NCBI GenBank assembly: GCA_043825875.1
Contig: JBDRRF010000030.1
Coordinates: 1-46,410, forward strand
Length of the DNA stretch: 46,410 nucleotides
Source: Pseudomonadota bacterium
GTDB taxonomy: Bacteria > Desulfobacterota > Desulfobacteria > Desulfobacterales > RPRI01
Reading direction: 5' to 3'
The position numbers and the translations under genes are program-made. Shown piece by piece: positions 1 through 46,410 of this stretch. The stretch's first letter is position 1. The number at the start of each line of letters is the position of its first letter. Under the pieces are notes generated by a model that ran no database searches, was not told the DNA's origin, and was given only the letters and a program-made list of their open reading frames with translations.

Positions 1-140
1 GCCACTTTCAAAACGTTTCAGTTTGGTCAAGCTCAAGGCGGGAGAAAATTTCAACCACAGGAATACATTTAGTATTTCGAGGATTGAAATTTGAGCCCAA
101 CGCAGAGATCGGCCAAAATGGGGCGTTTTGAAACTGGCTC
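1..140 (+). repeat. ~142-bp palindromic dispersed repeat (MITE-like), copy 1, missing 2 bp at the window edge
   Basis: Ends (GA)GCCACTTTCAAAACG...CGTTTTGAAACTGGCTC; near-identical to 25988-26129; related to 24492-24656 (inverted) and 41828-42013. Confidence 0.9.
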
Positions 141-164
141 ACCCGGTTATACTTTACTATATAC

Positions 165-711: not shown

Positions 712-2031
712 TTATTTCGACAACAGCAAGAAATTACTAACGCTAAAAAAGCTGGCGTCCAATTTTGAAGCAGGTATATATAAAAAGTTTTCGGGATGAG
801 GAGCCGTAGAGCTAACAGTACAATGACGCGCTTTTTCATCTATATAGACCTGAGCATCACTATCTCCTATATTATTTTTACCACTTGGACTCTCACTATA
901 ATGGAAGAAATTAGTAAACCAGGTCCGGAAATCGCCGGATCTTTCATATACTTCCTTGTACCATATGTTATAAGTTTCCTGGTCAATATAATTTACGTGC
1001 AAACCCCAGTTGTAATAAGGATCTTTAGGCATCTGTTCCACAACCCATACCTTTCTGGGAGCATATGTTATAACACCCGGAGCAGGTGCCCAGGCAGCGC
1101 CCTTAAATCCCGGCACTTCATAATTTAATTTGAAGCACTCACCCGTGTATGGAAATTTCGAAGGAACCCTTCCATCCGGTAATTCCTCAACAGGTATCAA
1201 GTTCGGGCTGGTAAAAGAAACAAGAATCGTTTTTTCTCCAATTAACTTCCATTTCATTGAACTGATTTTACCGCTGAATCCATAATTCATATCGGACCAT
1301 GAATCAGATCCCATGAATGGATCAGATCGTGACGCTGTTCCGGTTTGCCGAATCCTGCGAATGGCAGGAACATAAGCATAACTGGTGTCTTCCTTTGATG
1401 GGTCCATATAAACGAGCATCATTTGATTAGTTCCTTTAACACTCATCGGCTCCAAAATTCTTGGTAATTCGTAGCTAAGAACATGATCAGGATTTTTTGC
1501 TATTTCCTGACCTGGCGGCCTGCCTGTCAAATAAAGACATGAAAACAAACCGTCTGCATAGCGTTCCTTTCCTGATTTGTCTATCCATAATAGAGGTCTA
1601 CGCAGTCTTGAAGCCATGAAACGATATACCGACCATTTATAATTCGCTACAATCTTGTTTCCCACCTTGGGATCTTTAGGATCTATTGTGGGGAAAGGCA
1701 TACCGTAAACATTATGGTATGGAATTTTTCCTGTACTTTTTTCGATTACCTCTCCTTCAGAACTTATGTCAAACTTTCCGGCATTCTTCTGGCTTGCAGC
1801 AAGAAAGCTTTCCGGCAACTTCCATTTAAAGTTAACAGCTCCAGGTGTAATAACCATATCGCCTTTTTCTACCGCGCGATACATAGCCGGAAAGAGAATG
1901 TCTTTGTATTGAGCACAGTTGGTCTTATCAATTACCTTGGGTAAATCCATAGCCAGCAATGAACTGCCCAAGAGGAGAACAAGCAGCGACAACCCTAAAA
2001 TTTTAAAAAACCTTATATTTCTTATCTTCAC
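712..2031 (-). CDS. DUF1329 family (LolA-like fold) periplasmic/outer-membrane-associated protein
   Basis: Signal peptide; motifs GMPFP, YVPAIRRIRQ, RSDPFMGSD, VWVVE..PKDPYY; probable GTG start at 2031 after AGGAGG (ORF track start 2055). Confidence 0.85.
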   Translation of the reverse strand: MKIRNIRFFKILGLSLLVLLLGSSLLAMDLPKVIDKTNCAQYKDILFPAMYRAVEKGDMVITPGAVNFKWKLPESFLAASQKNAGKFDISSEGEVIEKSTGKIPYHNVYGMPFPTIDPKDPKVGNKIVANYKWSVYRFMASRLRRPLLWIDKSGKERYADGLFSCLYLTGRPPGQEIAKNPDHVLSYELPRILEPMSVKGTNQMMLVYMDPSKEDTSYAYVPAIRRIRQTGTASRSDPFMGSDSWSDMNYGFSGKISSMKWKLIGEKTILVSFTSPNLIPVEELPDGRVPSKFPYTGECFKLNYEVPGFKGAAWAPAPGVITYAPRKVWVVEQMPKDPYYNWGLHVNYIDQETYNIWYKEVYERSGDFRTWFTNFFHYSESPSGKNNIGDSDAQVYIDEKARHCTVSSTAPHPENFLYIPASKLDASFFSVSNFLLLSK

Positions 2032-2146
2032 TTTTTCCTCCTTTGGTTTTTCCAAAATCCAAAAAAAGCCTTTGTTATTTTATATCTTGACTAATAGTGC
2101 TTTTAATAACAGTTAATACGATCCTCGGAAAATAAAACCACAATTG

Positions 2147-3775
2147 TTACCATTCATATCCCAGTTTAATGGTTGCCTCAGTAGGTCCATTCACAAAATT
2201 GGAAAATGCGTAACTTGATTCATCATCACCCAAAAATGCTTGAAATGTTAGCTGAGTATATAAATTAGGTGTTATAGTCCATTTAATTTGCGGACGCAGC
2301 ATCCATGTGGCACCATCGCCATGTTTTCCCATATTGTATGCAACTATAAGCATAGGATTAAGTTTGCTTGCCCACCAGTTCGTCATTGCCTGAAAAAAGA
2401 AAGTATCCTGTTCCCGGCTGTTTGTTCGTTGGTGCAACAGTTTCGGACCGCCTGCTTTGTTTGTTACTGTGGCAGAATAAAATGGTCCATCCAGGCGACC
2501 GTCTGAATCGCCAGCATTCCACTCATTGATCGTTGTATGCAGCCATTCAAAAGATACATTTACAAGGTCGTGAGGTGAAATCCATCTTATGCGCAAATCT
2601 TTGTCAACAGCCAGCATAACTTTTGTGACCGGTTTATATACAAAGGATTGTACACCTGCCTGATCATCTAAAGGAACCATAAAAGGCGCAACAGGAATTG
2701 ACATCCAGTTCCCGACCAAAAGATCTTGACCTGTAGCAACAGTGATCGGGTAAGCAGTATAATGTGAAGCCTCACCTCTTATAACAGCTTCAAAACGGCC
2801 AATAAGCAATTGATAGCTAAAATAGCCGCCGTAAACATGCTGTTTATTGTGCGTAAAATTAGCTGTTTGTCCACTATAAAATTTGTCTATAAATATACCC
2901 GGATCATTTACTACATCTCTGAAGTAAAGCAAAGAAAGGCTAAGCCTGTCTCCGAGCTGTGCAGATACCTTTCCACCGTATTCATTATTGTTCGTAGGCA
3001 CATCCTCTCTTATATTTTGTCCGGTAAGATCATAAAACAGGGGGGATACATAAGGCGCCTGAAGCCCTACACCAGCTTGGCCTGCAACACTATCTCTGGG
3101 TCCGAACTGTGTTGGCCTGATATCAGGAATCCACAATAAATCAAAATTAATACTGGTTCTGGCAAAACGCGGCAGATCGAAATTTAACCGGCCCATCCAG
3201 AGGGGGGTTTTTACATCATCTGGGTTCTGGAAAAACATCTGAAAGGACTGGTCGGCTGGGTTAATAATATCGCACATGGTTTCAAGAGAGCTTTCACCCC
3301 AGGATACAATTTGTCTTCCTGTTCTTAGGAAGGCTCTGTTGCCCAGATGGCCTTTATAGGCAAAATCAATAAAAGCTTCTCTTAGGTCACTCTCAAACCT
3401 TATGTCTTCTTCTCCATAATCAAATCTTGAAGCACCTAAATCTTCTTTAATATCATATCTATGTGCAGCAAGATCATAAATTGAATCATAGGCGCCCCTG
3501 AAAGTTAAATGAACTTTTTCTACTCTAAACGGGCCCAGTTCCATATCAGGATCAATGTCAACATCAAACTTTAATGTATTTCTCTGTTGTACTCCGTAAG
3601 CTTCGTCAAAAAAACCGTACTGCATACCATCTACATCACGCATAACTAAAGAAGATTCCAGAAAACCATGGAAACTACTAGTCATTTGAGCTACGGCAAT
3701 TGGAGAGAAAATTACCAACATTGATAGTGTAATTAATACACATAAGCCAGATTCACCCCATCTTCTTTTTCTCAT
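2147..3775 (-). CDS. DUF1302 family outer-membrane beta-barrel protein
   Basis: LREAFID...LRTGRQIVSWGES..DIINP motif, C-terminal aromatic residue (YEW), signal peptide, canonical pairing with DUF1329; ATG 3775 follows AGGAGG. Confidence 0.8.
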   Translation of the reverse strand: MRKRRWGESGLCVLITLSMLVIFSPIAVAQMTSSFHGFLESSLVMRDVDGMQYGFFDEAYGVQQRNTLKFDVDIDPDMELGPFRVEKVHLTFRGAYDSIYDLAAHRYDIKEDLGASRFDYGEEDIRFESDLREAFIDFAYKGHLGNRAFLRTGRQIVSWGESSLETMCDIINPADQSFQMFFQNPDDVKTPLWMGRLNFDLPRFARTSINFDLLWIPDIRPTQFGPRDSVAGQAGVGLQAPYVSPLFYDLTGQNIREDVPTNNNEYGGKVSAQLGDRLSLSLLYFRDVVNDPGIFIDKFYSGQTANFTHNKQHVYGGYFSYQLLIGRFEAVIRGEASHYTAYPITVATGQDLLVGNWMSIPVAPFMVPLDDQAGVQSFVYKPVTKVMLAVDKDLRIRWISPHDLVNVSFEWLHTTINEWNAGDSDGRLDGPFYSATVTNKAGGPKLLHQRTNSREQDTFFFQAMTNWWASKLNPMLIVAYNMGKHGDGATWMLRPQIKWTITPNLYTQLTFQAFLGDDESSYAFSNFVNGPTEATIKLGYEW

Positions 3776-4083
3776 ATCTTTCCTCCTTAAATTTAATTTC
3801 TTCAAAAAAGATATATCATCTAATTATTTATAACTGCTTTCACCTCCTTCCTGATGTTTATAGTAAACTAATACTCTTTCCGGCATTAATCAGTCCTTTT
3901 AAGGTTCGTACTAATTCCAAAGCGTTGTCGGGCAAGACACGGCACAAAAAAAGGGCTGTTTAATGCCAATATAAAAACCTATCTTAAAAAACATGGCTTT
4001 TTTCATAGTTGACTTATTGTATTTAATAATTCATTTATCCAAACTAACATTAAATTTTATATCGAAAATGGAATATTAAATTC

Positions 4084-5577
4084 ATGGCTTCTATACAAGG
4101 AACAAATATTTCGTCAGATAATACTAAGTTATACAGATCTCTTGGCTCTCTTATAAAAGAATATCGAAAATGGCGGAAGATGAGCCAGGAAAAATTTTCC
4201 GAATCAATTCAAATAAGCGTTCGGGAACTGCAAAATTGGGAATCCGATCGCCGCAGTCCCAGAATTGAGAATCTGCATGATCTTTCGGAAATGACCGGTC
4301 TTCCTATGCAGGCGTTAATAGCTCTCAACGCGGACCAGCCTGTATGGTATTCTTTAGGCAAAAGGTTTTTTAAGTATTCATTGATTGAGGAAGATCAGTT
4401 TTTGTCACGAGAATTATTAAGATACCAAAATAAATCCGCGGATGACTTTCTTGTAAAATACATACCAATTACAACAGATAGGCAAATCAATATGATTCTC
4501 TCATGCCATCGGGATATTTACGGTACGGAGAGACCATTGCCGAAAGATGTAATCAAAAAAGCCGCCAGGTTCCTTCCAAATCTTAATAATACAATTATTG
4601 ACTGCTGGGGGCATTATGTTGGACATCAAATATGTCTTCCGATAAAAGCGGATATATATAAGGATATTATAAAATCAAAGTGCATAGAAAATTATCTGAG
4701 TTTACGAAGCATTAATGATATAATAAGCATGGATGCGGGGGTTTTGTTCTATTATTCCGTACATTCAGCCTGTGTCAGCGTTGGACGGCGGCTTGTTATA
4801 GACAGTGCTCAGTCCCTTTCTGAAATTAAGCAAAAAGAGAATTTTCTTCTCGCCACTCATACCGCTACCAAAGAAGCGAAAACAATCCAGAGTAATATAG
4901 GAATGAGGTTTGTTAGAGATTATGCTCACAGGCTCAATGAAACAAACCCTGTCATATATGAACAGAATCTGGATGTTCATATAAAACTTAGAAAGCCTTA
5001 TGTATGGATGATTGAACACATTTCCGGACAATCGGGAAAAATGCCGGAACAGAAATCTTTAATTAGCGTTGATGAATCATCATTAGGCGTTGATAGAAAC
5101 TTATCTTATAATAAAAACATCAATCCTGTTAAACAAATAACACAAGCCTGCACAAATTCTGCATGCAAACTTTATGGTAAAACCAAACAAGGCAATGTCG
5201 TTTCAAACGGGACATACCGCACAAAAGACGGTCTCCCTGGTCGCCGCTTTCTCTGCAAAACATGCGGTAAATCTTTTTGTAACAGAACAGGAACTATGTT
5301 TCATGGCTTAAGATCTTCGGAAGATAAATTTATTAAAGCCCTTAAATTACTGCTTAAAGGAATGCCTTTGCAAAAAGCGGCTGACTCATTGGGAATATCT
5401 TTCAATACAATCCGGCACTGGCTTAGCGTTTCGGCAAGACATTGCGATAAAATCAATGCTATTCTTGAAAAAGATCCTGAAGTATCACAGGCCGACCTTG
5501 ATACATTATGGGCTTTTGTTAGAAAAAATTCTCTTCGTCAACGGGCGGCCCTTTGGAACTGGTCTGAAAATAAATAA
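4084..5577 (+). CDS. XRE-HTH / GNAT-like / IS1 InsA-like (Zn-ribbon + HTH) multidomain protein, paralog 1
   Basis: N-terminal XRE HTH (LIKEYRKWRKMSQEKFSESIQISVRELQNWE); C-terminal CTNSAC...CKTCGKSF, HTH, DTLWAFV; colinear with 26170-27603. Confidence 0.8.
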   Translation: MASIQGTNISSDNTKLYRSLGSLIKEYRKWRKMSQEKFSESIQISVRELQNWESDRRSPRIENLHDLSEMTGLPMQALIALNADQPVWYSLGKRFFKYSLIEEDQFLSRELLRYQNKSADDFLVKYIPITTDRQINMILSCHRDIYGTERPLPKDVIKKAARFLPNLNNTIIDCWGHYVGHQICLPIKADIYKDIIKSKCIENYLSLRSINDIISMDAGVLFYYSVHSACVSVGRRLVIDSAQSLSEIKQKENFLLATHTATKEAKTIQSNIGMRFVRDYAHRLNETNPVIYEQNLDVHIKLRKPYVWMIEHISGQSGKMPEQKSLISVDESSLGVDRNLSYNKNINPVKQITQACTNSACKLYGKTKQGNVVSNGTYRTKDGLPGRRFLCKTCGKSFCNRTGTMFHGLRSSEDKFIKALKLLLKGMPLQKAADSLGISFNTIRHWLSVSARHCDKINAILEKDPEVSQADLDTLWAFVRKNSLRQRAALWNWSENK

Positions 5578-24377: not shown

Positions 24378-24491
24378 AGTTGTGATATCCACTACCTTCA
24401 AATTATAGAAAAGTATTTGGTAAAATTTCAAAAACTCTCTGACCAAATAAAGCTTACCGCTATCTTAAAAAAGATACAAAGTTATATTGCT

Positions 24492-24656
24492 GAGCCAGTT
24501 TCAAAACACCCCATTTCGGCCGATCTTAAGCGTTGGGCTCAAATTTCGCACGAAGTGAAGCATTAGCGCTATCCTCGAAATACTAAATGTATTCCTGTGG
24601 TTGAAATTTTCTCCCGCCTTGAGCTTGACCAAACTGAAACGTTTTGGAAGTGGCTC
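24492..24656 (-). repeat. Palindromic dispersed repeat copy 2 (inverted) carrying one 22-nt insert
   Basis: Reverse complement of copy 1 plus insert at 24548-24570. Confidence 0.9.
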
Positions 24657-24662
24657 TGGTGT

Positions 24663-25919
24663 TTAATATCTGCCAAACTTCTTGGACGCCGCTATGGTGG
24701 CATCAAGATGCTTTGGAGTAGTATAGTAGTCTACAGCACCAACAGAAAGGGTACACCTGTTGGTACGGGATGCTTTTGCGCAATCGCTGCGGGCTTTAAC
24801 TTCTTCTTCAATAGCTGAAATCGGGCCACTTACAAGTGTTTTATCAGATGGCGCACTGGACGCATAAAGATCATGTTCCTGACAAAATTCATATAATTTC
24901 TTAAAGCTTTTGATATCACCTGTAACCATAATTCCATCAAAACTGCCTGGACCGGCTACATTTTTCTCCCATACAGTAGGCAGCCATTCGACACATCCTT
25001 CCATTGCCCATGCATATACAATCGGATTTTCAGCTGGAATTGCATTTTTAATTGCACTGCCTATCTTGCAGTATTCATCGGCAATCCATAAATTATCCGG
25101 TATGTGGGGAACAAAGCCCATACTGCCGCACTGGTAGCTGTAATCAACATTACCAAGCAGTGTAACGGCCTTGCCAAGCTTTATTTGCCACTGCGTAGCC
25201 AAAGCTATAGTCTTTTTGACAAGATCGGGATTTTTGCGTAAAGCTTTCATCATCTGATTGTAGCCCAATAAATGATTGGCGGTAAAACCGTCAGGCCCGT
25301 GACAATGGGAGCCCTCAATGGGCATAAGTCCGCTTAAGCTGTATTTATCGAATATTCTTCTCGATTCTCTAAGCCACCACAAATATTGAGGGTACATGCC
25401 GTGTTTATCCGGATCAGGTACTTCCAAACCAATAAGATCTTCCTCGGTTTTTATCGGCATTTCTCCGATATGCACCGGATTGCCGTATTCAATAAGTTTT
25501 GAATCGCAGCCGTACAGGTTTTCACCATATGAAAGTGGACCTAAGAAAAGATTATCCGGCTTATATCTTGCTGTAGTTGCTAAATGGGATTTAACCAATA
25601 ATTTGGGTAATTGATATGCATCAATTGGTTTTAATGCATCAGCAAAGCCGTCAAGTGTTCTCACTGCAAACGAGACATGGTATTCCATCTCAACCATAAG
25701 ACGGTCCCTTTCCTTGCCTGCAAAAGTAGCCTTGTAACGCTCCATAGGAGTCATCTCTTCTTCAAGGCAGTTCTTGTGAATTTGCTCACAGTATCTTTCA
25801 ATCTCCCTTTCTTCTTCAGGACTCCACTCCATATCGCCCAATTCATCAAGGGTTTTACCGTAATACGGCCCGGCATCTTCCATTTTACCAAGCTTAATCA
25901 TATCGTTATTTACCTCCAT
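24663..25919 (-). CDS. Uroporphyrinogen decarboxylase / MtaA-CmuA superfamily protein (atypical)
   Basis: EMTPMER..A, LEVPDP...G.YP, G...GP, L.KNPDLVKK, L..GP...IEEEV, T..HLDA.I.A.K.FGRY. Confidence 0.75.
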   Translation of the reverse strand: MEVNNDMIKLGKMEDAGPYYGKTLDELGDMEWSPEEEREIERYCEQIHKNCLEEEMTPMERYKATFAGKERDRLMVEMEYHVSFAVRTLDGFADALKPIDAYQLPKLLVKSHLATTARYKPDNLFLGPLSYGENLYGCDSKLIEYGNPVHIGEMPIKTEEDLIGLEVPDPDKHGMYPQYLWWLRESRRIFDKYSLSGLMPIEGSHCHGPDGFTANHLLGYNQMMKALRKNPDLVKKTIALATQWQIKLGKAVTLLGNVDYSYQCGSMGFVPHIPDNLWIADEYCKIGSAIKNAIPAENPIVYAWAMEGCVEWLPTVWEKNVAGPGSFDGIMVTGDIKSFKKLYEFCQEHDLYASSAPSDKTLVSGPISAIEEEVKARSDCAKASRTNRCTLSVGAVDYYTTPKHLDATIAASKKFGRY

Positions 25920-25987
25920 TGTAATATTGTTTTTCTATTGTTTTACTGTTAAGCAATAAACGGTTACATTTTTATATTTTGATAATA

Positions 25988-26129
25988 GAGCCACTTTCAA
26001 AACGTTTCAGTTTGGTCAAGCTCAAGGCGGGAGAAAATTTCAACCGCAGGAATACATTAAGTATTTCGAGGATTGAAATTTGAGCCCAACGCAGAGATCG
26101 GCCAAACTGGGGCGTTTTGGAACTTGCTC
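25988..26129 (+). repeat. Palindromic dispersed repeat copy 3 (142 bp, no insert)
   Basis: GAGCCACTTTCAAAACG...CGTTTTGGAACTTGCTC, with AATA on both flanks. Confidence 0.9.
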
Positions 26130-26169
26130 AATATTATATCCGGCATCACAGTTTTAACAAGGCCTAAAT

Positions 26170-27603
26170 ATGTCCTCTGATAATTATAAATGTTACAAGA
26201 CACTTGGACAACTAATCAAAGACTACCGGCAATGGCGAAAGCAAAGCCAGGATGAATTTGCCGAATTGATAGAAGTCAGCGTAAGGCAATTGCGAAGATG
26301 GGAAGCTAATCTTTCACATGCTTCCATAGAAAATCTTCAGGATATTGCCAGTATTACTAAAATACCCATGGAAGTTTGCATTTCGCTTAATTCTGATAAT
26401 CCGTTATGGTATTCGCTGAAAAAGAAAAGATTCGCCTACACATTAATTGAAGCGGATCTTATAAGAATAAAGGATTTACTCAAAAGCTACACACAGCCGG
26501 GTGGAAAAATTACGGCAGAAAACGATAAGTGCCTAACTGATAAGTATATAGATGTGGTTCTTTCTTATCATAATGATACCTACGGAACCAAGAAACCTTT
26601 GAATAAAGATGTTTTGGCAAAAGCTATAAAAATGTTGCCTGATTTAAACCGCATTACATTTGATCACTGGGGTCTTATGGTAGGTTATGTTATATGTTTA
26701 CCCATCAGAATAGATATATATCAGAAGCTTATAAAGCAAAAAACGCTCGAAGATTATCTTACAGCAGATAAAATCAGCGGCATATTAACTATGAATAAAG
26801 GAGTTTTTTTTCATTATTCCATGTTTGCAACAAATTTAGGGGTAGCATATCCGATGATGGTTAACAATTTGAAATATCTTTCAAAAATAAATCAAAAAGA
26901 AAGATATCTTGCGGCTTTCCATACATCCATATCAAAAGGAAAAGAGTTTTACACTGATCTGGGTTTGCGAATAGCATGGAATGCCCATGAATTCGGGGAT
27001 GTAATTTCTGATGATGTTCCGGAAATTCTTGAAATCGAGTTGGATAATCTGATTAACCGGTTTGAGAGTTATTCTCCTCCCAAACCCGTTGACACTCCCC
27101 AACCCGTTGACGATAGGGGCCCGGATACAAAAGAGAGTGAAATCAACATAAAGGAAATAACCTGCCCAAATCCTGATTGTGTAAGAAACGATAAAAACAA
27201 AGAAGGCAATATAGTCTGCAACGGAACTTACAGAACAAAACAGGGGGGCTTACGCCGCAGGTTTATATGTAAAACCTGCAACAGATCATTTTGCACTAAA
27301 GCAGGGAGTATTTTTTACGGCCTTAAATCTTCCGAAGAAAAAATTATTGCTGTCCTCAATCTTCTGATTAAGGGAATGTCTCTTACAGGTACGGCAAATG
27401 TTATGAAAGTAAAATTTGATACTGTCCGGCGCTGGCTTACAATTGCTGCCGGACAGAGAGGAAAAATTGATGCTATGCTTATTGAGAAATTGAGGGTATC
27501 TCAGTCCGAATTAGATACTTTATGGGCTTACATTGGTGAAAATTCCCTTCGCAAAAGAGCGATTCATTTAAAAAAAAGTTGTAAATCTCATAGCCAAAAT
27601 TGA
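26170..27603 (+). CDS. XRE-HTH / GNAT-like / IS1 InsA-like multidomain protein, paralog 2
   Basis: Colinear with 4084-5577; CPNPDC...CKTCNRSF, HTH, DTLWAYI. Confidence 0.8.
   Translation: MSSDNYKCYKTLGQLIKDYRQWRKQSQDEFAELIEVSVRQLRRWEANLSHASIENLQDIASITKIPMEVCISLNSDNPLWYSLKKKRFAYTLIEADLIRIKDLLKSYTQPGGKITAENDKCLTDKYIDVVLSYHNDTYGTKKPLNKDVLAKAIKMLPDLNRITFDHWGLMVGYVICLPIRIDIYQKLIKQKTLEDYLTADKISGILTMNKGVFFHYSMFATNLGVAYPMMVNNLKYLSKINQKERYLAAFHTSISKGKEFYTDLGLRIAWNAHEFGDVISDDVPEILEIELDNLINRFESYSPPKPVDTPQPVDDRGPDTKESEINIKEITCPNPDCVRNDKNKEGNIVCNGTYRTKQGGLRRRFICKTCNRSFCTKAGSIFYGLKSSEEKIIAVLNLLIKGMSLTGTANVMKVKFDTVRRWLTIAAGQRGKIDAMLIEKLRVSQSELDTLWAYIGENSLRKRAIHLKKSCKSHSQN
27079..27114 (+). repeat. 18-bp tandem duplication in an interdomain linker (PKPVDT/PQPVDD)
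   Basis: CCCAAACCCGTTGACACT CCCCAACCCGTTGACGAT. Confidence 0.75.
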
Positions 27604-41827: not shown

Positions 41828-42013
41828 GAGCCAATTTCAAAACGTTTCAGTTTGGTCAAGCTCAAGGCGGAAAAAAATTTCAACCGCAGGAATACATTGA
41901 GTATTTAGAGGATAACGCTAAAGGTTAGCGCTTATGCTTCACTACGTGTCACTTCGTGCGAAATTGAGCCAATCGCAGAGATCGGCCAAAATGGGGCGTT
42001 TTGAAACTGGCTC
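41828..42013 (+). repeat. Palindromic dispersed repeat copy 4 (186 bp) carrying a nested double insert
   Basis: Same termini as the other copies; 46-nt insert at 41914-41959. Confidence 0.9.
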
Positions 42014-42073
42014 AATTATTTTATTAGAATACAGGCAGGTATATATTACGGCCAAAGCAAGGATGTAAAAACA

Positions 42074-44484: not shown

Positions 44485-44709
44485 ATGTCTCATACAGAAA
44501 ACATAAACACAAAAGAACTGGCCAGCACCCTGGAACCCATGATAAGGCGGGTTGTCCGGGAAGAGCTATTAAAAATCTTAAAAAAGAACATGGGTGTTTT
44601 CCAACTCACGCCGGAAATGCCTCTTTATAAAGATATGGAAGAAATAGGCAAACGCAAAAAACATAATAAGATCAAGTTGCATTCCCATGACGAGGTATGG
44701 GGTGAGTGA
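44485..44709 (+). CDS. Putative type II antitoxin
   Basis: 74 aa, AAGGAG SD, IRRVVREEL, C-terminal SHDEVWGE typical of RelB-like antitoxins; overlaps the toxin start. Confidence 0.7.
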   Translation: MSHTENINTKELASTLEPMIRRVVREELLKILKKNMGVFQLTPEMPLYKDMEEIGKRKKHNKIKLHSHDEVWGE

Positions 44710-45031
44710 TTACCAAGCCGTATATGAGCAAAGGTTTGTCACTAATCTAAAACGGTACAGTTCCATGCGGGAGCAGATAAGGCACCGTGTTGAAAGAGTC
44801 CTGTCAGATCCGTATCATAATACCGAAAAGCTCACAGATACCTCCGGGAAGCTCAACTTGCGTGGATGCCGCAGCGCTCGCGTTGATAGAAATTTCCGAA
44901 TCATATTTACGATCTGCGAAGAATGCCGGAAGATACCGTTTTGCGAATATTGCCTCTGTGAAGGGCTGGAAGACAAGACCGTTATCTTTTTAACGGTGGG
45001 CCCTCATGATAAGGCTTATGCTATAAAATGA
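44702..45031 (+). CDS. RelE/ParE-superfamily toxin with Cys-rich insertion
   Basis: RF..NLKRY, DPY, LRGCRSARV...FRIIF, VIFLTVGPHDKAY; GTG 44702 after GAGGT (alternative ATG 44687). Confidence 0.75.
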   Translation: MSDYQAVYEQRFVTNLKRYSSMREQIRHRVERVLSDPYHNTEKLTDTSGKLNLRGCRSARVDRNFRIIFTICEECRKIPFCEYCLCEGLEDKTVIFLTVGPHDKAYAIK

Positions 45032-45164
45032 AAAAGAATTTAATCTGATTTATAAAGAAAAAGGTAGCCGCTGTCATCTTAACACCCTGCCTGTCACGCC
45101 AAAGTGCAGCATTACATAATTGGCCGTGTACATGCGCTGTCAATTCTATTCTAAAAGGTAGCGC

Positions 45165-45193
45165 ACATCCGATAACGCGTAATTATGTAAAAT
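45165..45193 (+). other. dif-like (XerC/XerD) recombination site
   Basis: ACATCCGATAA-CGCGTAA-TTATGTAAAAT; the XerD arm matches E. coli TTATGTTAAAT at 10/11; spacer is 7 bp. Confidence 0.55.
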
Positions 45194-45472
45194 GTCATTT
45201 GTCTCGCCTGGCTGGGCTTGAATATAAAAGGTTAGCGGCTGTCTGATTTTATCATTCTCCCTCCGCCCTCCCAAAAACAACAGCGGTTAATGAAATAAAT
45301 CTCCAACTGCTGGTTTATGATAAATAAGTTTAGTACATATACTACCCTTTGAGAAACAATATTACACATTAAAACAAGCGGCATGAAATTTAGATTGGCG
45401 TACACTATTGACGGCATAGGTCAATCTGTTAAATGCTTAATAAGCAATGCCAATATACTAATACTCGTCAAT

Positions 45473-45787
45473 TTATTTACAAAAAACCACCAAAAGCAAT
45501 AAAATTACTACAAGGAATTGAAAAGATACAATCAATGCAAATCCTTTTCCATACCCAATATATAATTTGTTTATCTGTTCCTCTCTTTCTTTTACCTTTG
45601 AGGATTTTATTTTCCAGGCAGATATTAATACTAATGGAAAGTATAATAGGATGAATAATAGTATAGAAAAAGCTTCTACATTTAGTTCCCATTCTAAAAC
45701 GAATCTGATTAACAAGTACCAAGGAAGAACAGCTATTATACTAATTATAAAAGATTTAATAAACACCTTTAAATATATATTGCTCAC
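45473..45787 (-). CDS. Putative membrane immunity protein for the Rhs toxin
   Basis: 3 TM helices, very AT-rich, GAGGAG SD, directly downstream of the Rhs C-terminus. Confidence 0.65.
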   Translation of the reverse strand: MSNIYLKVFIKSFIISIIAVLPWYLLIRFVLEWELNVEAFSILLFILLYFPLVLISAWKIKSSKVKEREEQINKLYIGYGKGFALIVSFQFLVVILLLLVVFCK

Positions 45788-45809
45788 TTTAGCAACTCCT
45801 CAATAAATA

Positions 45810-46410
45810 TCAAGAGCATGGCGTAGCCTTTTCATCATTTAAAGCTTCATCTATAAGATGAATCCCGTGATATATATCCCAAACACCAAGTGCTAATACT
45901 GGAACCATTTCAATAGCGACAATGCCTGTTAAAATTGGATTTCCTGTTAAAACAGCAGTGCCAACTGTGGCAGTAATGGCGACTCCAACCATCGTTAGGC
46001 CATCAGTGACAGAAAGGACTCCAACGGCTAGCTTGCCCCAATTAACCAATCCAAACGGATCAACCAGATTAACCGGATCATTTAGGACATACCCATAAAG
46101 ATTCGGGTCCCCACCCGCAAAATCAATAGGATCTTTGGCGGCCCAGCGGCCTATGGATGGATCAAAATCTCGATATCCGAATCTTACAAGTCCAGTATCT
46201 CTATCGTGCAATCCTCCTGCAAAGCCAAATGGTACTGTAAATCCCGGATTTGTATCTGATATTATATTCCCAAAAGAATCGTAGTCAATCTGTTTTATGA
46301 TATTGCCGGAAGAATCGGATACAGCTTTTAATGTTCCTACCTGGTCGTATAGGAAATAATAAGCGCTTCCGCCTTTTGTCATAGAAACCGGCAATCTACC
46401 GTCTGCGTAA
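45810..46410 (-). CDS. Rhs/YD-repeat protein, 3' part (runs off the window) with hydrophobic C-terminal toxin tip
   Basis: YDSFG, FGFAGGLHDRDTGLVRFGYRDFDPSIGRW..KDPI, NLYGYVLNDPVNLVDPFGL core; frame open to the window end. Confidence 0.9.
   Translation of the reverse strand, partial: YADGRLPVSMTKGGSAYYFLYDQVGTLKAVSDSSGNIIKQIDYDSFGNIISDTNPGFTVPFGFAGGLHDRDTGLVRFGYRDFDPSIGRWAAKDPIDFAGGDPNLYGYVLNDPVNLVDPFGLVNWGKLAVGVLSVTDGLTMVGVAITATVGTAVLTGNPILTGIVAIEMVPVLALGVWDIYHGIHLIDEALNDEKATPCS

Follow-up and report, generated by a model that had tools for sequence, protein, structure and literature searches.

How does a bacterial regulator come to end in the DNA-binding half of a transposase, and what use might it make of that half? 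The question is raised by two genes in a 46,410-nucleotide contig of a Desulfobacterales bacterium (JBDRRF010000030.1, the whole of which is called the window here), which the original prediction, made from the sequence, had assigned to a candidate regulator family combining an XRE helix-turn-helix (HTH), a GNAT-like central domain and a domesticated part of an IS1 transposase.

Architecture of the two window genes

Both genes are intact, colinear and well diverged, as predicted, with open frames throughout and 41% protein identity over 483 columns. The XRE assignment was confirmed by an N-terminal HTH_3 domain above cut-off in each paralog, and the C-terminal block does resemble the N-terminal half of IS1-family transposases, matching positions 7-112 of 199 of the NCBIfam IS1 transposase model (NF033558) with E-values of 2e-9 and 1e-9, both below the 100-bit cut-off of the model. 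The central region has no Pfam or NCBIfam name in either paralog. An AlphaFold model of paralog 1 built from 55 sequences (mean pLDDT 80.7) comprises XRE helices, a GNAT-type core (residues 119-303), a disordered linker (residues 305-351, pLDDT <50) and an ordered C-terminus; Foldseek with the model of this last part, the IS1-family OrfA, returned nothing at E 0.001 or better. Coordinates are collected in Table 1.

Table 1. Features of the two window genes and of related IS630-type fusions. Positions are those of the window unless a locus is named.
Feature	Position	Strand	Remarks
Paralog 1 gene, 497 aa: XRE + GNAT-fold + linker + IS1-family OrfA	4084..5577	+	
XRE (HTH_3) domain of paralog 1, residues 24-76	4153..4311	+	E 5e-15
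GNAT-fold domain of paralog 1, residues 119-303	4438..4992	+	Without motif A
Repeat-core pair in paralog 1 linker, 21-bp spacing; candidate intragenic operator	5054..5094	+	Reads LISVD / LGVD
Captured OrfA of paralog 1 (zinc finger, HTH, tail)	5140..5574	+	57% identity to donor OrfA, 138 aa
Relic A6 frameshift run, paralog 1	5523..5528	+	-1 frame ends after 14 codons
-35-like hexamer TTGACT, probable sigma-70 promoter of paralog 1	4009..4014	+	Family trait
DUF1302 (2147-3805) and DUF1329 (712-2055) genes, divergent from paralog 1, probable targets	712..3805	-	
Paralog 2 gene, 477 aa, architecture as in paralog 1	26170..27603	+	
Repeat-core pair in paralog 2 linker, degenerate, 18-bp spacing	27077..27111	+	Reads PKPVD / PQPVD
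Captured OrfA of paralog 2, A-run broken	27154..27600	+	56-57% identity to donor OrfAs
URO-D-like gene divergent from paralog 2, probable target	24663..25919	-	Weak match; relatives pass cut-off
IS630-type fusions	L039:1616-3058, L041:2195-3646, L059:6108-7556		

A GNAT fold without motif A

The GNAT-like character of the central domain was borne out by structure searches with the AlphaFold model (residues 119-303). The domain aligns with the CurA GNAT-like domain (2ree; VIA Z 13.5, rmsd 3.3, 163 aligned), with which Naa50 ties at Z 13.5, and Foldseek gave GNAT-type folds throughout among the matches listed; a PDB sequence search with the central-domain profile found nothing significant. In GNAT proteins the CoA-binding loop, motif A, reads R/Q-x-x-G-x-G/A. 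The pattern [RQ]xxGx[GA] occurs in 0 of 45 rows of the central-domain alignment, which speaks against the proposal that the fold senses acyl-CoA, and the motif-A segment is the least conserved part of the domain (mean 0.41). Because the motif is missing and its segment is the most variable, a non-CoA ligand pocket is likelier. We consider it unlikely that the domain is an active acyltransferase or an acyl-CoA sensor (a reading that bears on the sensor only and is compatible with the other readings of the protein): the fold keeps conserved His, Tyr and Ser residues, and acetate and propionyl-CoA genes are controlled by XRE proteins (PMC8987985, accessible text), but besides motif A, a GNAT match in Pfam, NCBIfam or PDB sequences is lacking.

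The donor insertion sequence and its complete OrfA

The donor was found by profile and genome searches with the C-terminal part, a word-based search with the same region having given family members only. The C-terminal profile matches standalone open reading frames (ORFs), 170-185 codons long, from other families of this phylum, with E-values down to 4e-73; these are OrfA genes, and a second ORF that scores above cut-off for DDE_Tnp_IS1 overlaps them in the -1 frame. A donor insertion sequence (IS) at L063 1386-2588 spans 1203 bp; its terminal repeats of 28 bp are identical to each other (GGTAGTGACCCTTTAATAGTTGATAAAT), and it is flanked by an 8-bp duplication of its target. Perfect copies of the repeat occur in 26 metagenome stretches, of which 19 contain OrfA and none contains the XRE-GNAT core. 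The IS1-family group concerned (L063:1386-2588, L061 and L116-L141), characterized by 28-bp repeats and an OrfA of ~167 aa below the NCBIfam IS1 cut-off, may be unnamed; the donor IS is perhaps already named in ISfinder.

Paralog 1 aligns with the L063 OrfA through the slippery site and the NSLRQRA.LW tail, and the captured piece is therefore a complete InsA-type product. The NSLR.RA tail is indeed common to both window proteins, as had been noted, but it is not a host addition, being the frame-0 tail of the donor OrfA. Both Cys pairs of the zinc finger are present in 46 of 46 fusions (the first pair was a selection criterion) and HTH_23 in 38 of 41; the position of the first catalytic Asp is Asp in 28 of the 46 fusions, changed in 10 and cut off or unmatched in 8. 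The reported lack of an InsB/DDE continuation holds, since the -1 frame beyond the A6 run of paralog 1 closes early (Table 1). No OrfB was found by tblastn within 1.5 kb of the 46 fusion genes or in genome G000, and with the query used it was not found in four of five carrier genomes; the slippery run is shorter than six A in 26 of 34 fusion genes. Two complete terminal inverted repeats were not found in the fusions, which keep only the inner core of the left repeat with terminal bases not conserved, and no reverse-strand site regularly follows the stop codon. Judged by these features, the fusions would not qualify as an active IS1-family element, having neither a reachable DDE ORF nor two terminal repeats.

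A single old capture kept under selection

The data show how the fusion arose. An IS1-family element entered the 3' end of a gene for an XRE-GNAT regulator, lying in the orientation of that gene, and read-through joined the encoded protein to the left end of the IS together with its entire InsA-type OrfA. OrfB and the right end of the captured IS were lost, after which copies of the fusion accumulated next to catabolic and uptake operons. What the capture took is the complete left-end cassette of repeat, promoter region and orfA.

Across 15 close pairs (dS 0.41-2.3) the dN/dS of OrfA is 0.04-0.26, similar to that of the host domains and not neutral, with a median of 0.25 over the 280 usable of 946 pairs; the XRE domain is the most constrained part (0.04-0.14), and the linker protein is near neutral (median 0.9). 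In a quick tree, all 41 fusion OrfAs form one clade nested in the IS OrfAs, on one side of a branch from 18 element OrfAs (SH-aLRT 95), in keeping with a single origin followed by vertical inheritance. An earlier tree including unverified standalone proteins placed four of these inside the fusions with weak support and is compatible with one origin; the large core tree is likewise a quick tree and omits 14 rows not cut by the domain pattern. Near-identity to an active IS1 copy is not seen, the fusion OrfAs being 49-69% identical to their two nearest donors, and the prediction of an old IS1-family capture kept under selection is upheld by the dN/dS values and the single clade. That OrfA is an IS scar, whether recent or neutrally evolving, or a selfish mobile unit, is scarcely credible: its patchy presence (five of 17 genomes of the window's genus), burst-like copy numbers and some broken copies would fit such a view, but purifying selection with saturated silent sites already contradicts it, as do the one clade with long branches, the absence of OrfB, the shortened slippery runs and the unrelated flanking DNA between copies.

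The left repeat in the coding linker

Inverted repeats of the IS had been reported absent. This does not hold: the core of the donor left repeat sits in the coding linker of both paralogs as direct tandem pairs (Table 1). The core has the form yTAAnnGTTGRy, and in frame the left repeat reads G-S-D-P-L-I-V-D-K, that is, the LxVD motif of the linkers. The repeat cores of the window linkers are degenerate, without a match to the 21-mer within 3 mismatches, and when these two linkers were aligned with the whole leader, 74 and 68 of 100 shuffles scored as high. The linker of L012 matches the donor left repeat at 24 of 27 bases, and the linkers of L017 and L023 can be aligned with the IS leader along its full length, scoring 112 and 97 against top shuffle scores of 72 and 66 (100 shuffles). 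A donor-only 17-mer is matched at 12 or more positions in 32 of 46 linkers, compared with 6 of 184 control windows and 63 of 920 codon shuffles, and at least six of the 46 fusion genes have no linker site scoring 11 or more.

The silent bases of the core are constrained as well. GTT is the Val codon in 68 of 72 linker Val-Asp/Gly pairs (a count that drops seven genes in which the pattern found no domain end), versus 19 of 61 elsewhere in these genes and 42% genome-wide. In the aligned Val column it is found in 37 of 37 genes, the median over 89 four-fold columns being 0.52 with three of them reaching 0.9, and within 12 mutually saturated genes in 11 of 11; genome G408, which lies outside motif building and is close to G000, has 24 of 24 versus 12 of 24. 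Two codons upstream of the Val, the third base is A in 24 of 29 four-fold codons representing six amino acids (0.27 genome-wide). These GTT and repeat counts are not independent, because the paralogs share ancestry and G408 is close to G000, and a single fixed column is not unique, because the four-fold column of Ser22 is equally fixed (window 4147-4149 in paralog 1; TCT in 27 of 27 genes with a TCN codon). The silent fixation of Ser22 may reflect a further signal, in the DNA or the RNA, close to the start of the gene. As read from its silent positions, the repeat core is conserved at the DNA level inside the gene.

In 34 genes scored, the linker carries two repeat copies in 25, three in five and one in four, at spacings of 18-27 bp, mostly 18 or 21 bp (12 vs 13), and the motif lies invariably on the coding strand and in frame. 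Seven of the 12 tandem site pairs of G000 fall within family genes (one being a broken copy), strong pairs are found in this genome in family genes only, and the array is therefore not a promoter regulon. A genome-wide regulon of the core was considered and rejected, as 1029 of 1219 single sites are in coding sequence in a genome that is 82% coding, with no intergenic excess. Cases of the core in promoters are weak: TTGACAA[CT]T occurs in 7 of 57 versus 3 of 502, and two hairpin loops score 14.

Family distribution, neighbors and promoters

A protein search gave 75 relatives, and databases name these proteins only generically as HTH or 'XRE/transposase-like'. Genome G000 contains 10 core-domain genes, of which seven have the IS1 part, two are core-only and one is N-terminally extended, plus two broken copies. 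The five carrier genomes of the genus have 1 to 33 matches each; the core is found in none of 24 other genomes of the order and, among 401 genomes drawn from the phylum, in G000 only. A core-only form is present in a Syntrophales MAG, and the closest named relative is a copy (N47_A07530, 77% identity) in Desulfobacterium sp. N47, a naphthalene degrader. Core-only forms are scattered in the core tree, where they force at least three gains or losses, and OrfA is dispensable because it was lost or is absent several times.

The divergent layout described for the window, paralog 1 facing DUF1302 and DUF1329 genes and paralog 2 a URO-D-like gene (E 0.0011, under cut-off), extends to 46 of 48 family genes (58 genes, 10 without an upstream ORF in view). 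At least 18 family genes lie beside DUF1302/DUF1329 and most others beside oxidoreductases or hydrolases (74 of 135 neighbors scanned), with further neighbors including molybdenum, tungsten and flavin oxidoreductases, hydantoinases, a glycyl-radical enzyme, esterases and URO-D-like proteins. In Pseudomonas, DUF1302/DUF1329 genes matter for growth on fatty esters, by a mechanism that the accessible text of the source leaves unsettled (bioRxiv 10.1101/2020.07.04.188060). TTGACA occurs within 250 bp upstream of 44 of 57 family genes and in 90 of 502 background regions; paralog 2 has no TTGAC box within that distance. The XRE domain is nearly identical across paralogs, and a dyad search of the upstream regions for a shared XRE operator gave only the -35 box and a leader hairpin. 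With the pattern used, sigma-54 promoters of the divergent operons were found in 0 of 57.

The hairpin, located in the leader of the divergent DUF1302 gene (window 3882-3967, minus strand), is conserved, ~95 nt long and formed by a 25-pair stem around an unpaired conserved core, with two-sided changes at 12 stem pairs in 16 sequences. It often lies directly 5' of the ribosome site of DUF1302/DUF1329 genes, has nine matches in G000, is also present in L005, L008, L010, L012, L014, L020, L022, L035-L037, L046, L048 and L055-L057, and has no Rfam match; it is a candidate new leader RNA or processing site, or else a small mobile repeat. A MITE-like palindromic repeat of ~145 bp (window 25985-26132) is inserted in the divergent region of paralog 2 and is also found at window 1-141, 24491-24657 and 41828-42016, with 248 near-full matches in G000. 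The contig end (window 44687-46394) holds a weak ParE-like ORF (E 0.006) and an RHS/YD-repeat fragment.

A second transposase domain on the same core

In six proteins (L039, L041, L059, P0071, P0073 and P0074) the XRE domain is preceded by an IS630 N-terminal domain; some of the six may represent one gene sampled from near-identical genomes. The E-values of the IS630 domain are 8e-18 to 3e-14 in the three proteins scanned, and full-length IS630 relatives were found. Three IS630-type fusions form one clade in the core tree (support 99), dN/dS is 0.18 and 0.26 for the two usable of three pairs, and no IS630 repeat remnants are evident upstream of the fusions in three sequences. An IS630 DNA-binding domain was captured independently onto the XRE-GNAT core, and the fusion is under purifying selection.

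Other architectures include a variant of 854-861 aa with the GNAT-fold domain and linker duplicated (L057:2501-5065, P0015, P0017) and a protein of 514 aa in which XRE-GNAT is followed by ~210 residues without Pfam match (L045:6013-7557). P0084, P0085, P0088 and P0089 are standalone OrfA-like proteins, some without the slippery-site motif, and the P0088 cluster includes a Planctomycetia protein; these four are possibly separate InsA domestications.

Possible roles of the captured module

We propose that each paralog would act as a one-component regulator of its divergent operon, in which the XRE domain would bind the promoter region common to both and the GNAT fold would provide a non-catalytic pocket for a small ligand that would differ between paralogs. 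The captured OrfA would still bind the repeat core, present as one to three tandem copies in the linker of its own gene, and, sitting directly upstream of the OrfA codons, would stall transcription of that gene. Such stalling would constitute a cis-acting negative feedback that tames the consensus -35 promoters of the family, the autorepression pair of the IS, InsA and its site, having been adopted as a unit. There are precedents for both elements: InsA, which contacts the IS1 repeats by means of its zinc finger and HTH, represses the promoter that overlaps them (PMC12428005, accessible text), and LacI bound to a site in its own coding sequence truncates its message (PMC13584721, accessible text).

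The joint conservation of the OrfA domain and the site core, and the concentration of arrays in these genes, argue for binding in cis, which we consider likely with either outcome, feedback brake or loop anchor; an operator kept within the gene of its own regulator suggests a self-control switch borrowed from the transposon. The case for a brake exerted by the captured InsA domain on its own-gene array appears evenly balanced. It is favored over an anchor because consensus -35 boxes are common and a LacI-type truncation is possible, while the at least six site-poor fusions, the OrfA losses and the Ser22 column would count against it. In the anchor reading, which is conceivable but doubtful, OrfA on the intragenic array would hold the protein at its own locus while the XRE domain, ~1 kb away, acts on the divergent promoter, and this would give locus specificity to up to 33 paralogs with near-identical XRE domains. 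The DNA-level conservation of the core (GTT column, upstream A, G408), the strong constraint on a near-uniform XRE domain, the prevalence of divergent genes and the 21-bp spacing, equal to two helical turns, are all consistent with a loop; the data do not separate a roadblock from a loop. Yet array and OrfA recognition region are common to all paralogs and would therefore confer little specificity, a spacing of 18 bp is about as frequent as one of 21 bp, and core-only paralogs adjoin the same kinds of operon.

Binding may also not be the reason for which the core is kept. It could persist as an RNA-level signal, as the remnant of a -35 box or as a short protein strand whose codons were inherited, OrfA then being an oligomerisation or non-specific DNA-binding module, and the overlap of the motif with the donor -35 hexamer, its fixed strand and frame and the similar silent fixation of Ser22 are consistent with this. 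We hold it to be distinctly unlikely, as the -10 box, ribosome site and start codon that came with the IS are decayed where they are alignable, Asp/Gly and Leu/Ala/Ser/Pro/Val/Thr swap freely while the silent bases stay, and truncated members retain zinc finger, HTH and array with the tail helices gone. A guard function, with the fused InsA domain acting in trans to repress newly arriving IS1-family copies, is very improbable. Overproduced InsA nearly abolishes IS1 transposition (PMC12428005, accessible text), and donor OrfB was not found in most carrier genomes with the query used, but one copy would suffice for such a purpose, neither the location next to catabolic operons nor the joining to XRE-GNAT would be explained, and the 12 non-carrier genomes of the genus are likewise without an OrfA match.

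We think it on balance probable that a complete transposon autorepression module (InsA plus operator) was co-opted into a host regulator, with the operator dual-coded, tandemly amplified and bound in cis, and that the independent uptake of an IS630 domain by the same core marks a repeated route to two-headed bacterial transcription factors. Each step can still be read in the DNA, from the donor and the read-through leader to the loss of the catalytic half, the single origin, the rise to tens of copies and the second capture. In relatives of Desulfobacterium sp. N47 the family points to dozens of uptake and catabolic operons, and its GNAT-fold pockets are candidate new small-molecule sensors.

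Comparison with known systems

Transcription factors composed of a transposase DNA-binding domain and a host domain are a eukaryotic theme, with SETMAR among the host-transposase fusions. Another case, the KRAB fusions (bioRxiv 10.64898/2026.08.24.746577, accessible text), resembles the present family in joining a transposase DNA-binding domain to a host regulatory domain, in the loss of the catalytic part and in purifying selection. Unlike these, the fusions described here are bacterial and arose by read-through instead of splicing, and the site was captured along with the domain and is concentrated in the gene, not dispersed over the genome. For prokaryotes, the accessible text of a review of recruitment (PMC8987985) names phage and antitoxin regulators and no transposase-domain fusion. 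The literature searched, from which most subscription journals fell outside scope, contains no description of an XRE-GNAT-InsA architecture, in agreement with the original prediction, and the regulator family is apparently undescribed.

The N-terminal HTH_3 and divergent placement are those of XRE one-component regulators, and the GNAT fold, in which an insertion separates strands 3 and 4, is that of GNAT-like domains such as CurA GNAT-L (2ree); the family differs from both in a central domain that has no sequence-level family match and lacks motif A. A further likeness is to the InsA autorepressor of E. coli IS1 (PMC12428005, accessible text), which shares the zinc finger and HTH and is a frame-0 product ending past an A-rich slippery site; in the donor IS, too, the repeat overlaps the IS promoter. 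Here, by comparison, the domain forms the C-terminus of a 480-560 aa host protein without OrfB or right repeat, the site is duplicated and lies within coding sequence, and the OrfA of the donor subgroup is longer (~167 aa). TldR proteins, TnpB-derived RNA-guided repressors (PMC10705468, accessible text), are likewise bacterial transcription factors domesticated from an IS gene, but they represent a whole nuclease-dead accessory protein with a guide RNA, whereas here the DNA-binding half of a DDE transposase is fused to a sensor regulator. Finally, LacI, whose operator overlaps lacI (PMC13584721, accessible text), is a regulator acting on its own coding sequence, as is proposed here; LacI does so with its one DNA-binding domain, whereas in the present family a second, transposon-derived domain and its site would act.
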